A DNA stretch of 64,000 nucleotides from Escherichia coli (GTDB lineage Bacteria > Pseudomonadota > Gammaproteobacteria > Enterobacterales > Enterobacteriaceae). The DNA is taken from NCBI RefSeq assembly GCF_030013595.1, contig NZ_CP122772.1. One strand, given 5' to 3'. The position numbers were made by a program. The number at the start of each line of letters is the position of its first letter. Within the stretch, counting starts at the first letter, position 1. Positions 12,001 to 18,000 of the stretch are shown here, piece after piece.

Positions 12001-15000
12001 TCCCTGTTTGAGAATTGAGGAGGCGAGATGTCGCAGACAGAAAATGCAGTGACTTCCTCATTGAGTCAAAAGCGGTTTGTGCGCAGAGGTAAGCCTATGT
12101 CTGATTCTGAGAAACAGATGGCCGCTGTTGCAAGAAAACGTCTTACACACAAAGAGATAAAAGTTTTTGTCAAAAATCCTCTGAAAGATCTCATGGTTGA
12201 GTACTGTGAGCGAGAAGGGATAACACAGGCTCAGTTCATTGAGAAAATTATCAAAGATGAACTGCAGAGACTGGATATACTAAAGTAAAGACTTTACTTT
12301 GTGCCGTAGCATGCTAGATTACTGATCGTTTAAGGAATTTTGTGGCTGGCCACGCCGTAAGGTGGCAGGGAACTGGTTCTGATGTGGATGTTGTACAGGA
12401 GCCAGAAAAGTGAAAACCCCGATAATCTTCGTCAAGTTTGGCGACTGAGAGAAGATTACCGGGGCTAACAAGAAACCGCATAGAAGCTGTTGCTCCATGC
12501 GGGGAGTATAGTTATATGCCCGGAAAAGTTCAAGACTTCTTTCTGTGCTCACTCCTTCTGCGCAACATAAGTGCAGGAAGGTGTGGCTGAAAGATACACT
12601 CCACAAAAACACTGGAGTCAGCTTCCGCCAGAAGAGCAAATCCGTTTCTGGGAGGACTATGAAGCGGGAATGGCGACCTCTTTCCTGGTGGAACCGGAAA
12701 AGAAACGCACGAAGCGCCGTCGTGGTGAGCACTCCACCAAACCCAAATGCGAAAATCCGTCCTGGTATCGTCCTGCGCGCTATAAGGCGCTGAGCGGGCA
12801 ACTAGGGTACGCCTATAACCGTCTGGTGAAAAAGGACCCGGCGACCGGTGAGCAGAGCCTGCGCATGCGTATGTCGCGACACCCCTTTTACGTGCAGAAA
12901 CGGACGTTCGCTGGCCGTAAATATGCTTTCCGTCCGGAAAAACAGCACCTCCTCGATGCCATCTGGCCGGTTCTGGTCAGTTTCAGTGATGCGGGCACAC
13001 ATACCGTAGGCATGAGTGTTTCCCGTCTGGCCAGAGAAATCAGCCCGAAAGACAGCAAGGGGAAGGTTATTCCGGAACTGGAAGTGACGGTCTCCCGCCT
13101 TTCCCGTTTGCTGGCCGAACAGGTACGTTTTGGTGTGCTGGGTGTTTCAGAGGAAACCCTGTGGGACCGTGAAACCCGCCAGCGTCTGCCACGTTACGTC
13201 TGGATAACACCGGCAGGCTGGCAGCTGCTGGGCGTCGACATGGTAAAACTTCACGAACAGCAGCAGAAACGACTGCGTGAAAGTGAAATCCGCCAGCAGC
13301 TCATTCGGGAAGGTGTTCTGCGTGAGGATGAAGATATCTCCGTACATGCGGCCAGAAAACGCTGGTATCTGCAGCGCAGCCAGGATGCACTGAAACACCG
13401 TCGTGCAAAAGCGGCAGCCAGTAAGCGCGCCAGACGCCTGAAGAAACTGCCTGCCGACCAGCAGATTCATGAGATGGCAGAGTATCTCAGGAAGCGTCTG
13501 CCGCCGGATGAAGCCTATTTTTGTTCCGATGACCATCTGAAGCGACTGGCCATCAGGGAGTTGCGTCAGCTTGAACTGACGCTGGCTGCCCCGCCACCGC
13601 ACTAGACAGCACCATTTCCTCAGCACTGAATCATCGCCAGCCCCTCCGGGGCTTTCGGCGCTGGTTCCGCTCAGCCCAAAATCCGCAGTAATCACCTTAA
13701 ATCCCCTCAGAGGGGCATATCTGCCCATAAAACCACGCATCAGTCATCAGAACGTGGCCACTTTGTTTCAGTTATCCACATAAATCCGCAAACAAAGAAC
13801 TTTAAGAAGCTGCAAACCTGAAACAGCAAACCTGCAATATAGTCTTAACCCCATTATTTAATCCCCTGCGTTGCTTCGCCGCAGGGAAAGTCTTTATCTC
13901 TGAAACCACTGTGAACAAACACAAAGAGGCCTTCGCTTGCAGCGGCCAAAGCCGCGCCGCTCAGAATTTAAAAGCACCTCCCACCGCAAGCGGCGGGCCC
14001 CGACCGGAGCCATTTTAGTTACAACACTCAAATACAACCACCAAGAAAACCCCGGTCCAGCGCAGAACCGAAACCACAAAGCCCCTCCCTCATAACTGAA
14101 AAGCGGCCCCGCCCCGGCCCAAAGGGCCGGAACAGAGTCGCTTTTAATTATGAATGTTGTAACTACATTATCATCGCTGTCAGTCTTCTGGCTGGAAGTT
14201 CTCAGTACACGCTCGTAAGCGGCCCTGACGGCCCGCTAACGCGGAGATACGCCCCGACTTCGGGTAAACCCTCGCCGGGACCACTCCGACCGCGCACAGA
14301 GGCTCTCTCATGGCTGAAAGCAGGTATAGTCTGGCAGGGCTGGGAATGGGTAAGGTGAAATCTATCAATCCGTACCGGCTTACGCCGGGCTTCGGCGGTT
14401 TCACACCTGTGCTACATGTAACCACCGTATGCCGCCTTACATGCGCTGACGCGCATTATTTGCCTTGTTTCGTCTGAAAGTAATCACTATGATTAAATAT
14501 GATTAACAACTAATCGAATATACAAATGAAAAACAATACCGCACAGGCAACAAAAGTCATTACCGCGCATGTGCCATTACCTATGGCTGATAAAGTCGAC
14601 CAGATGGCCGCCAGGCTGGAACGCTCCCGGGGCTGGGTTATCAAACAGGCGCTTTCTGCATGGCTTGCCCAAGAGGAGGAGCGTAATCGCCTGACGCTGG
14701 AAGCCCTGGACGATGTGACATCCGGACAGGTTATCGACCATCAGGCTGTACAGGCCTGGGCGGACAGTCTCAGTACTGACAATCCGTTACCGGTGCCCCG
14801 CTGATGGAACTGAAGTGGACCAGTAAGGCGCTTTCTGATTTGGCGCGGTTATATGATTTTCTGGTGCTGGCCAGTAAACCTGCTGCCGCCAGAACGGTAC
14901 AGTCCCTGACACAGGCACCGGTCATTCTGTTAACTCATCCACGTATGGGAGAACAGTTGTTTCAGTTTGAACCCAGGGAGGTCAGACGGATTTTTGCTGG

Positions 15001-18000
15001 CGAGTACGAAATCCGTTACGAACTTAATGGCCAGACTATTTATGTATTGCGCCTGTGGCACACACGAGAAAACAGGTAGATTGTGTGTGGGGACAACTTT
15101 AACATAGCCTGCAGGTATTAATTCTGGAGCTTTGTTATCAGGTCAGATATTTTGCATTCCATTAAATAATCTTGATCGATAGGAATTTAAATCCCCAAAA
15201 GACTAAAAAAGCACCACAAAACGGATATTTCTTCAACACCCCTTGTGCACCATATGAGCGGAAACGACTATTAAACAGGATGACACTGATTGATACAGGG
15301 TATGAATGGCGGTTTTTTGCTCCGTTTCCGGTAAAATGGACGCAACTTCCCCTCTGCGGCTCTCAGCCGCACACCTGCTGTCGTGCCAGTCGCTCATGCA
15401 TCAGGACCAGCTCTGCCAGTCGGTAACCCCGCTTCAGCCCCGTAAAACGCATCTGACTTCCGCACAGAATGCACTTCAGCGGGTCAACCTTCAGTAACCT
15501 CTGATACATCCCTCTCCACCTGATTTGCATCGCCGTTTTTCTCACCGTCTCCGTTATGACGTACACAACTTCTTCCAGTAAGCGGCGCTTCACCGGACTC
15601 AGGAAACCGTAGTACCTCACCATACGGAACCCCTTATCTGCTACATGCCAGGAGAACCTTTCCATGAACTCATCTCCACTCATCAACAGGTATTCTTCCC
15701 GTTTTGTACGGTGACTGTTGTAACGCAGACCGATTTCATCCTGACCGGCATAATGCTCCAGCCGACTCATCGGCACCGGTGGCTTTTTCAGGTAAGAGCC
15801 GAAGTACACCGCCACATGTGTGGCGTTATCCATCACCCTGGATATGTTGACATTCCAGCCGCGGCGGTAATGCGTGTCCAGGAAGCGATTCCAGTCCCGT
15901 TTGCTGTTTCCTTCCACTGCCAGTTCATCCGGTATTACCAGCTCCGGGTATTTCCGGGACAGTAGCCGCGTTATCCGGTAACGCCACATGCTCATCACCT
16001 TACGCGCGTAAAAATGAAGATTTTTCCAGGTGTGGCCCGACGTCACACCACCGGCAGTTGTCGATAAATGGATATGCGGATGCCACTGCTGGTCACGCCC
16101 CCATGTGTGGATCACCGTGAATATCCCCGGCTCCACATCTGTCTGATGGCAGATTTCCAGTATCACATCCGCTGCAATGCGGCTCATCTCTGCCAGTAAC
16201 CACCGGTTGTGGAACACCAGGGACCAGTACTGGCAGGGAAGTGTGAACACAATATGCTGCCACGGGCAGTCGGGGACCAGGCTCAGCAGATACTGTATCC
16301 ACTGTGCGCCAGCCTTCACCCCGCAGTGCGGACAGGAGCGGCTTTTACACCGGAAGCAGACCTTTTTGGTGTGGCAACAGTCCGGTGACGAACAGCACCA
16401 TTGCGTGTAGCCCATCAGCGTGGTCCCGCATGCCATGATTTTTGTCACTGACTCAGTCACCACCGGACGCACTGAACCTTCCGGCTGTTTCTCCAGCCAG
16501 TTAAGCCAGCGGTTACCCTGCTGAAAAATATCGGCAAAACGGGGAAGCATCAGACGGGTGGGGTAACGCCATCCGGCCAGTGAACTGTGCCGCATTCCGG
16601 GCAGTACATACCACCGGCACTGATACCGGCAAGAATGGTTGCAAACTCCCGCTCCGTACAGCGGGCTATTTCCGGATACCCTTCGTCATCGACACGAACA
16701 AACCAGAAGACCAGCTTTTTGTTTCCTGCATCCAGAAAGAACGGAATACCCAGGTCAGCGCAGCACTCAACGGCATCGTCAAAATTATCAAAGCGCAGAA
16801 CTTCAGCGTCTTCTTCGTCAAAAAAATCATCCGGATGAAGTTTCACAACATAGCGGGGAAGTTTGCTTCTTTGTGGTGCGGGTTTGCGTTTACGGGGTTT
16901 AGCTGAACGGGCCATATAACTACCTGAAAGACAATGACATTATCTTTTTTTATAACGGTAATTCCAGACCATGACAAGCCGCAGCCGCCAGGCTGCCTAC
17001 TCGATTCTCTCGTAGAATGTGTCGTCTGGCTGAACGAAAAAACCGCCTTGGTGGGCGGTTTTTCAAAGGTTTATGGAGTTGGCGCTCGTTGAACCGAGGT
17101 AACTGGCTTGGAGGAGCGCAGCCTCCAAAATAACCTGAATGTCCAAATGGGACAGAGATTATGTAACTGAGGGATTTACTAGCGTTGTTAGAAAGGTGGC
17201 TTATCAGGAGATCTATAAAAATGCAAAAGCCCAGTTTTTCAACTGGGCTTCGCGGTCCCTCAAGGGGAGAAAATCTGAATGGCCTCTATGGGCTACACAG
17301 CTAGTTTAACAAATCAGTAGGTTGTGTCAACAGTAAACTATTTTTCGGATTCCTGCTGTGCTGGTACAAGCGCAGTTGCATTGATAGCTTTGATTACAGC
17401 TTTTTGTAGGTTTGTGACAATTTCACGTGAAAGTGTCTGCGTTATCCATCCCCTATCTACTGCCATAGGTCTGTTAAGTCGCTGATTACTTACTGTTTGA
17501 ACCATGTCGCATTTAACCCAACTAGTTGTTTGTGGGAAATATTTTGCTGGTTTAATTATCCCCTCAGGTAACTCAACGTGAAGGCCATTATTAAGTTTAG
17601 CTGGATCTTTTGTGGTTGAAATCGGAACCACAATACAGGCATTGCCATTCAGACGCCCATTCAATACAACGACGAGTCTACATTTAATCATTTCTGGGGG
17701 AATATGAGCATCGACAGCAGTCGAAACTACATCTCCTTTTTCATCTTTCAAGTAGTTTCCGTAATTACACGTGAGAATTTGCCCCACTTTAGGGGAAAAA
17801 TTTATCGGCATATCAGAGCCTTCAGATAGTCAAAGAATAGAACATAGATTACTACACAGGAAAGGCTATGCGCTACATGGCGTATATAATTCTATGATCA
17901 TGAGGAAGCAGCTCCTCACCAGGACAGAAAATGCTGTATGTCCAGTCAACCGAAGAATTATAATGGCAACCATGATCATCACAGGAAGAACGAGTAACAG

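Follow-up and report, generated by a model that had tools for sequence, protein, structure and literature searches.

What kind of replicon is it that has the control genes of an IncFII plasmid and an initiator unlike that of R100? This question is raised by positions 12028-15079 of a 64,000-nucleotide stretch of Escherichia coli plasmid DNA (contig NZ_CP122772.1, assembly GCF_030013595.1), the whole of which is called the window here. The window is part of an F-type conjugative plasmid of porcine enterotoxigenic or Shiga toxin-producing E. coli (ETEC/STEC), with traT, traD, traI, and traX upstream of the region and the genes for F18 fimbriae (fed) and alpha-haemolysin downstream of it. An earlier note on this DNA had described here an IncFII-type control circuit with a RepA that differs from RepA1 of R100, and had suggested that the replicon is a different IncFII sub-type. 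The copB gene, the CopA RNA, tap, repA, and a ribbon-helix-helix (RHH)/ParE toxin-antitoxin pair were all found where the note had placed them and the RepA does differ from that of R100, but the sub-type proposal did not stand, as the segment at 12591-13973 is of I-complex lineage and makes the replicon a modular recombinant and not an allelic variant. From its sequence the region reads as a mosaic IncFII/I-complex replicon in which CopB/CopA/Tap control of the IncFII style is joined to a RepA and an origin of the IncI-gamma/K1 type, with the toxin-antitoxin pair after them. It is a recombinant between two known families, many plasmids have this configuration and are routinely annotated with it, and nothing in the region is new: it is an ordinary, already sequenced kind of plasmid replication region.

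The gene repA (12583-13605, + strand, GTG start) encodes a 340-amino-acid initiator of the I-complex (IncI-gamma/K1) type, which scored 316 bits with the NCBIfam model NF040977. The protein is 94-96% identical to RepA of the IncI-gamma/K1 plasmid pESBL-117 (96% over 331 amino acids), whereas BLASTP against R100 RepA1 gave no significant alignment (best E value 0.34) and the global identity of these two proteins is 19.9%. RepA does not, therefore, align trivially with the standard RepFIIA initiator. It could still be supposed that ordinary divergence, with no recombination, has carried RepA away from RepA1, which would make this a divergent IncFII sub-type. The Pfam model IncFII_repA matches a partial stretch of RepA at 24.4 bits, just above its cutoff of 22.9 bits, so there is a distant relationship between the two initiator families, and the architecture of the region, including the spacing of the DnaA box, is the same as in R100. 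Against such drift, identity to R100 drops from 88-97% to undetectable at the single-nucleotide boundaries 12590 and 13974, the same stretch is 94.6% identical to an I-complex plasmid, and backbone relatives with the same copB allele have the canonical RepA1. We consider ordinary divergence to be highly improbable, and on these alignments RepA is no divergent allele of IncFII.

The limits of the foreign segment could be placed closely. Three blocks of R100 homology were found by blastn, at 11920-12061 (97%), 12312-12590 (88%), and 13974-14453 (93-96%). The second block stops exactly at 12590, the last base of the tap stop codon, for R100 and for the plasmid unnamed2 of ETEC4090 (NZ_CP122622) alike. 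What follows it is the swapped cassette (12591-13973, about 1.38 kb), which holds the body of repA, CIS, and the origin and has no blastn similarity to R100; R100 homology resumes at 13974. With pESBL-117 the DNA identity is continuous at 94.6% over 12609-15174, that is, through repA, CIS, the origin, the downstream block, and the RHH/ParE pair, but upstream of 12609 the two plasmids are unrelated: the window has copB, CopA, and tap where pESBL-117 has its own control region, and the first 10 or so residues of RepA differ. Because the limits of R100 homology and of pESBL-117 homology meet there, the left crossover falls within 12583-12609, at the overlap of the tap stop and the repA start, and the right crossover is at 13974. 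ETEC4090 unnamed2 has a canonical IncFII RepA of 285 amino acids between the same flanks (CopB identical to that of the window at 84 of 86 positions, the RHH protein 98.9% and the ParE protein 100% identical), and the porcine plasmid pVP445, which in its transfer region matches window positions 1-11900 with 98.5% identity, also has the 285-amino-acid IncFII RepA. Comparison with these nearest backbone relatives shows the middle block to have been exchanged as a cassette. Chi sites (GCTGGTGG), considered as triggers of recombination, occur nowhere in the window.

Like the RepFIIA replicons of R100 and R1, the region has the order copB, CopA/CopT, tap, repA, CIS, origin, and downstream block, and it shares with them three DNA blocks of 88-97% identity, the overlap of the tap TGA with the start of repA at its GTG, the hairpin that would sequester this start, and a DnaA box about 170 nucleotides after repA. 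It is unlike them in that RepA has only the low identity given above, the origin DNA cannot be aligned, and CopB agrees at 41 of 86 positions (48%). Thus, of the features that define IncFII, the CopB gene, the CopA RNA, and tap are present, the coupling itself being predicted, whereas a RepA1-type initiator and an oriR of the R1/R100 type are absent. Of those that define the I-complex, the window has RepA/RepZ with CIS and oriV downstream of it, and lacks the I-complex RNAI and the RepB/RepY leader with its distal pseudoknot element, all of which are features of pESBL-117.

How the IncFII part would control repA can be read from its elements. The conserved upstream block HRI (11920-12027, +) contains the copB promoter region and ribosome-binding site, and positions 11920-12061 are 97.2% identical to R100. 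It leads into copB (repA2; 12028-12288, +), a distinct allele that encodes an 86-amino-acid transcriptional repressor (150.9 bits with Pfam PF10723, RepB-RCR_reg, and 139.9 bits with NCBIfam NF010256) and whose product is identical to CopB of the plasmid pE2528C1_53 at all 86 positions. The note had called both copB and tap closely similar to R100; this is right for tap, the leader peptide of which matches R100 Tap at 20 of 24 residues, but for copB it is true only of the first 11 or so codons and the upstream DNA, and positions 12062-12311, which take in the 3' two-thirds of the gene, could not be aligned with R100 by blastn. A repeat search found a perfect 9+1+9 palindrome, AAAGTAAAG-A-CTTTACTTT, at 12282-12300, which lies across the copB stop codon and overlaps the -35 hexamer (TTTACT, 12293-12298) of the putative repA promoter, PrepA, the -10 hexamer of which (TAGATT) is at 12315-12320; both hexamers were read from the sequence and the R100 alignment. 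Since the palindrome shares the variable block with that part of copB which diverges from R100, it is a candidate for the CopB operator.

The IncFII-like block HRII (12312-12590, +; 87.9% identical to R100) comprises the PrepA -10, the CopT leader, and tap. CopA, the antisense RNA, is encoded at 12408-12498 on the minus strand and matches Rfam RF00042 over its full length (89.2 bits with a gathering score of 60; E value 2.6e-15); it is predicted to fold into two stem-loops, and there is a sigma-70-like site for its promoter at 12533-12505 (-). Its upper stem and loop II differ at several positions from those of R100, and compatibility with IncFII would be expected; with the IncK1 RNAI it matches at only 57 of 84 aligned positions. 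The leader gene tap (12516-12590, +; TIGR03475, 57.8 bits) encodes 24 amino acids, and its TGA (12588-12590) overlaps codons 2-3 of repA with the same geometry as in R100, the repA GTG at 12583 aligning with the repA1 GTG of R100. For the window as for R100, folding predicts a hairpin in which tap codons base-pair with the Shine-Dalgarno sequence and the GTG of repA, and it is entirely on the IncFII side of the junction. The IncFII device for translational coupling of tap and repA is, as far as sequence can tell, intact in the hybrid.

The segment at 13606-13973 (+), the CIS spacer and putative origin, is 94.6% identical to pESBL-117; positions 13772-13780 are a perfect DnaA box (TTATCCACA), and a 14-bp sequence is repeated in tandem at 13806-13833. 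The DnaA box is 167 nucleotides after the repA stop, as in IncK1, compared to 176 nucleotides in R100 and in IncZ. Beyond it lies the block HRIII (13974-14453), which is common to IncFII and I-complex replicons, is 93-96% identical to R100, and contains two inverted ter-like sites at 14016-14030 and 14151-14165 with the cores GTTGTAAC. The block boundaries of the region fall between the cognate pairs, which are CopB and its putative operator, CopA and CopT, and RepA and its origin, and never inside them. Modular exchange along the borders of cognate pairs is seen clearly here.

In IncFII plasmids the promoter of copB is constitutive and that of repA is repressed by CopB, CopA binds CopT and thereby blocks tap, and repA is coupled to tap (PMC12361487); the layout of I-complex replicons has been described as well (PMC6361801, PMC10286972). 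We infer that the hybrid initiator is under control of the IncFII type, because the elements of the IncFII device are all on the IncFII side of the junction and the window lacks that of the I-complex. Transcription from the copB promoter, and from the repA promoter that CopB represses, would continue through CopT, tap, and repA, and pairing of CopA RNA with CopT would block the translation of tap. Because the repA Shine-Dalgarno sequence and GTG would be locked in the hairpin with tap codons, RepA would be synthesised only after a ribosome has reached the tap TGA, which overlaps codons 2-3 of repA. The I-complex-type RepA would then act at the adjacent origin with its DnaA box at 13772, and thus copy number and incompatibility would be set by a CopA of the IncFII type while the chemistry of initiation would be that of the I-complex. 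It is very likely that the region is such a functional modular replicon, put together from three cognate-pair blocks, namely copB with its operator, CopA/CopT with tap, and the I-complex RepA/CIS/origin.

A different view of this step is that translation of the hybrid RepA does not go by plain tap coupling but needs a pseudoknot of the I-complex style, formed between GGCG in the CopT loop and a distal CGCC. The CopT loop does have TTTGGCG, like stem-loop I of the I-complex, and there is a CCGCC at 12625-12629 just inside repA. The distal CCGCC of IncK1 and IncZ, however, is just upstream of the repA start, and there the window has Tap as the leader and a stretch of IncFII type (CTGCGCAAC), as in R100, in place of that element; moreover, the CCGCC at 12625 codes for Pro-Pro, and neither IncK1 nor the plasmid 55989p conserves it. 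R1-type replicons are not known to need a pseudoknot, and we count this against it also. Activation by a pseudoknot is unlikely, and we would give this explanation only a very small chance.

The natural occurrence of the modular replicon speaks to whether it is active. The same tap/repA junction was found in at least 108 plasmids of PLSDB with 86-100% identity, when matches to a 321-nucleotide probe across the junction with at least 80% coverage were counted. The hosts are E. coli, E. albertii, Shigella, and Salmonella, and the carriers include p557 of ETEC 1392/75, ETEC plasmids of O6:H16, and pSE11-2. The hybrid RepAs that start right after tap (five examined and that of the window) all have the full length of 340 amino acids and the same 13-residue N-terminus, and copB alleles vary among the plasmids that carry them. 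Because the N-terminus is shared while copB varies, this suggests one ancestral junction and later reshuffling of copB. Identical copies of RepA, CopB, and the ParE-family toxin already have NCBI entries with standard names, RepA on 49 contigs, CopB on 354 contigs, and the ParE-family toxin on at least 1000 contigs. A contig of 4.69 Mb has the exact RepA and CopB as well, which suggests that in some E. coli genome there is a chromosomally integrated copy or an artefact of assembly. Over the whole replicon no database record reaches 99% identity, and the best matches are pRHB30-C19_4 (99.7% over 9725-13215, its repA being interrupted by an IS3-family element) and pE2528C1_53 (96.8%).

This distribution bears on the possibility that the hybrid replicon is an inactive remnant and that the plasmid is kept by another replicon, either the Rep3/IncX1-like one in the window or one outside of it. 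A second initiator of the Rep3 family (IncX1-like; Pfam Rep3_N/Rep3_C) is indeed encoded at 26301-27137 (+), the relative ETEC4090 was typed as IncFIA and IncX1, and the near-identical copy in pRHB30-C19_4 has a disrupted repA. On the other side, copB, tap, repA, and CopA of the window are all intact, the exact RepA is on as many contigs as stated, the junction is kept in all those PLSDB plasmids with a full-length repA of 1023 nucleotides in six of the six examined, and in pE2528C1_53, a complete circular plasmid of 53.7 kb that MOB-suite types as IncFII and IncI1, the chimera is the sole annotated initiator. The case of pE2528C1_53 argues that no other replicon is needed for the chimera to maintain a plasmid, and that a single locus gives rise to both the IncFII and the IncI1 call. 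NZ_CP027332 had been taken as another sole-replicon example and was dropped, as it is a linear, partial record. An inactive remnant is improbable in our judgment, although somewhat less so than the need for a pseudoknot.

Several points weigh against a functional modular replicon and have to be set beside this evidence. Translation of I-complex RepA normally needs the leader-dependent pseudoknot, which is absent here, and that simple coupling would suffice is an assumption. The proposed PrepA hexamers agree with the consensus at only 8 of 12 positions, a consensus promoter scan detected the CopA promoter alone and neither PcopB nor PrepA, and the palindrome is the one feature from which the operator was assigned. 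There is also a ColE1-type RNAI in the window (17034-17133, -; Rfam RF00106, 72.9 bits), and because of this and of the Rep3 initiator the hybrid replicon need not maintain the plasmid. The PLSDB gene tables behind the sole-replicon argument are incomplete. Finally, in pRHB30-C19_4, the copy of which is 99.7% identical, the IS3-family element splits repA at the equivalent of window position 13215, and this shows that the chimera is dispensable where other replicons are present, as that plasmid has an IncFIB call.

Around the Rep3 initiator (region 25700-28113) there are perfect DnaA boxes at 25710 and 25749, and ddp1 is at 27760-28113. Upstream of the hybrid replicon, a 331-amino-acid open reading frame (ORF) at 10589-11584 (+), with no Pfam match, takes the place of the nuclease, hha, and DUF2726 genes of R100-like plasmids, and just upstream of it at 10308-10474 (-) is a match to Rfam AS-pc02 (58.2 bits).

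The other plasmids with the same chimera help to define what the class has in common. In p557, the O6:H16 plasmid NZ_CP024235, pE2528C1_53, and pSE11-2 the tap/repA junction and the RepA N-terminus are the same as in the window, and compared to the window their RepAs are 93.5-98.8% and their junction DNAs 90-99.7% identical. MOB-suite types these plasmids as IncFII (IncFIC in the case of pSE11-2) together with IncI-gamma/K1 (IncI1 in the case of pE2528C1_53). They differ from the window in copB, which agrees at 39-41 of 86 positions in pSE11-2 and p557, in some cases in the downstream toxin-antitoxin cassette (yacAB in pE2528C1_53, yacA in pSE11-2), and in their cargo, which is colonisation factors of human ETEC and not the F18 fimbriae and haemolysin of porcine strains.

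The IncZ plasmid pO26-CRL-125 (region 445-2418) likewise joins these two families, again at the overlap of the leader stop and the repA start, but it is the mirror image: its RNAI and leader are of the I-complex (80% identical to IncK1), its RepA is 87% identical to R100 RepA1, its origin is of the IncFII type, and from 26 nucleotides after its repA start onward its DNA is 85.5% identical to R100. The IncZ replicon is that of Praszkier et al. 1991, as cited in PMC10286972. All four combinations of control region and initiator thus exist, in R100, in plasmids of the IncK1 type, in the chimera of the window, and in IncZ. In the library of papers that we searched there was no explicit description of the combination of IncFII control with an I-complex initiator and only general statements on mosaic IncFII replicons, and mosaic replicons related to IncFII are an established idea (Osborn et al. 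2000, as cited in PMC6202452). A broader proposal is that the chimera is a self-sufficient class, the incompatibility of which would be set by the CopA allele alone, and that the overlap of leader stop and initiator start is a joint for reciprocal recombination, of which IncZ would be the mirror product. We hold this to be somewhat more probable than not.

A second kind of junction was seen in E. coli 55989p (3599-5211), where tap is followed by a 177-amino-acid ORF derived from IncFII RepA1, and where the TAA of this ORF shares bases with the ATG of an I-type repA (ATGGTGATTAA). Such a truncated RepA1 may serve as a long leader.

RepFIC of F and P307 is also similar in plan, as it has three regions homologous to RepFIIA that are parted by a variable 3' part of copB and a variable repA/origin part. 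This block pattern relative to RepFIIA is one that Saadi et al. in 1987 are said to have described. That the region is RepFIC was ruled out: over the aligned stretch of the F RepFIC remnant (to F position 4000), which includes a short piece of repA, CopB agrees at 42 of 86 positions and repA1 starts with MANHETHS..., unlike the RepA of the window.

Next to the replicon is the first of several candidate addiction modules. The RHH (CopG-type) antitoxin gene (14526-14804, +) encodes 92 amino acids, scored 41.5 bits with Pfam RHH_1, and has the ETEC4090 RHH protein as a 98.9% identical relative; the gene for the RelE/ParE-superfamily toxin (14804-15079, +) encodes 91 amino acids and scored 62.1 bits with Pfam ParE_toxin. 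The antitoxin TGA and the toxin ATG share one base at 14804, and the pair is intact. Solved structures gave weak matches only (6xrw, 7etr), and the toxin may be of the ParE (gyrase) or of the RelE (ribosome) type. An identity as YacA/YacB was rejected because there was no NCBIfam equivalog match, and yacAB is a different cassette that is found in the same slot elsewhere. The slot, at about 14453-15175 to the right of HRIII, has RHH/ParE in the window, in the IncK1 plasmid pESBL-117, in ETEC4090, and in 55989p; adjacent to HRIII there is yacAB in pE2528C1_53, an annotated yacA in pSE11-2, a StbD/RelE-like pair in IncZ, and further along in R100 pemIK, which is there in place of the RHH/ParE of the window.

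The earlier note had also listed relBE at 24545-25067 and two DinQ-like cassettes, and had counted at least four candidate modules in the window. All of these were recovered. On the minus strand at 24548-25070 are a relE/stbE-like toxin gene (24548-24829; TIGR02385) and an overlapping upstream antitoxin ORF (24819-25070). The toxin scored 124.6 bits against E. coli RelE (PDB 4v7k) with K52, K54, R61, R81, and Y87 all kept in an ungapped alignment, and the antitoxin ORF gave only sub-threshold matches, to Phd/YefM, YafN, and RelB. The two DinQ-like type I toxins are both NCBIfam equivalogs above cutoff: dqlB (18604-18699, -; NF041473, 72.3 bits) with an AgrB-like RNA at 19008-19095 (+; Rfam AgrB, 64 bits), and dinQ (31339-31422, -; NF041472, 55.3 bits) with an AgrB-like RNA at 31496-31583 (+; 70.1 bits), so that the modules span 18604-19095 and 31339-31583. 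Each RNA is upstream of its ORF and on the opposite strand. In the dqlB copy it is about 310 nucleotides from the ORF owing to an extra segment of about 265 nucleotides relative to the dinQ cassette (31300-31650), and this extra segment of the dqlB cassette (18550-19800) includes a second AgrB-target-like stretch. The third of the three Rfam AgrB matches in the window (19648-19732, +) has no DinQ-like ORF beside it and is between hypothetical ORFs at 19152-19574 and 19746-20009, both on the minus strand.

There is, in addition, a PemK/MazF-family toxin-like ORF of 157 amino acids (17341-17814, -; Pfam PemK_toxin, 50.7 bits), which is 100% identical to a toxin named by PGAP in ETEC4090. The ColE1-type RNAI adjoins this ORF and IS91-family elements (17034-17814), and that region may be the remnant of an integrated small plasmid. 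Just upstream of copB a srnB/hok-like ORF (11643-11858, +) matches Pfam HOK_GEF (34.9 bits). Compared to srnB of F it is without the ATG and the 5' leader, and its stop codon and 3' hairpin have gone with a deletion of 41 bp; with these losses it is probably a dead remnant of a type I toxin. The RHH/ParE, RelE, DqlB, and DinQ modules and the PemK-like ORF support the count of at least four candidate addiction modules in the window, and several such modules are typical of large F-type virulence plasmids.

The main value of the region is as a caution for replicon typing. Because typing tools give the copA region and the rep gene a score each, one chimeric replicon is reported as two. Counts of multi-replicon plasmids would be inflated in this way, for example among the virulence plasmids of porcine ETEC/STEC (PMC10151945), a survey to which we infer the link. 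Incompatibility should be predicted from the CopA allele and not from the type of RepA. If the broader proposal of a self-sufficient class is true, many of the multi-replicon calls of IncFII with IncI-gamma/K1 (or IncI1) on F-type virulence plasmids would be one chimeric replicon, and plasmids with this chimera could coexist both with classical IncFII plasmids and with plasmids of the I-complex.

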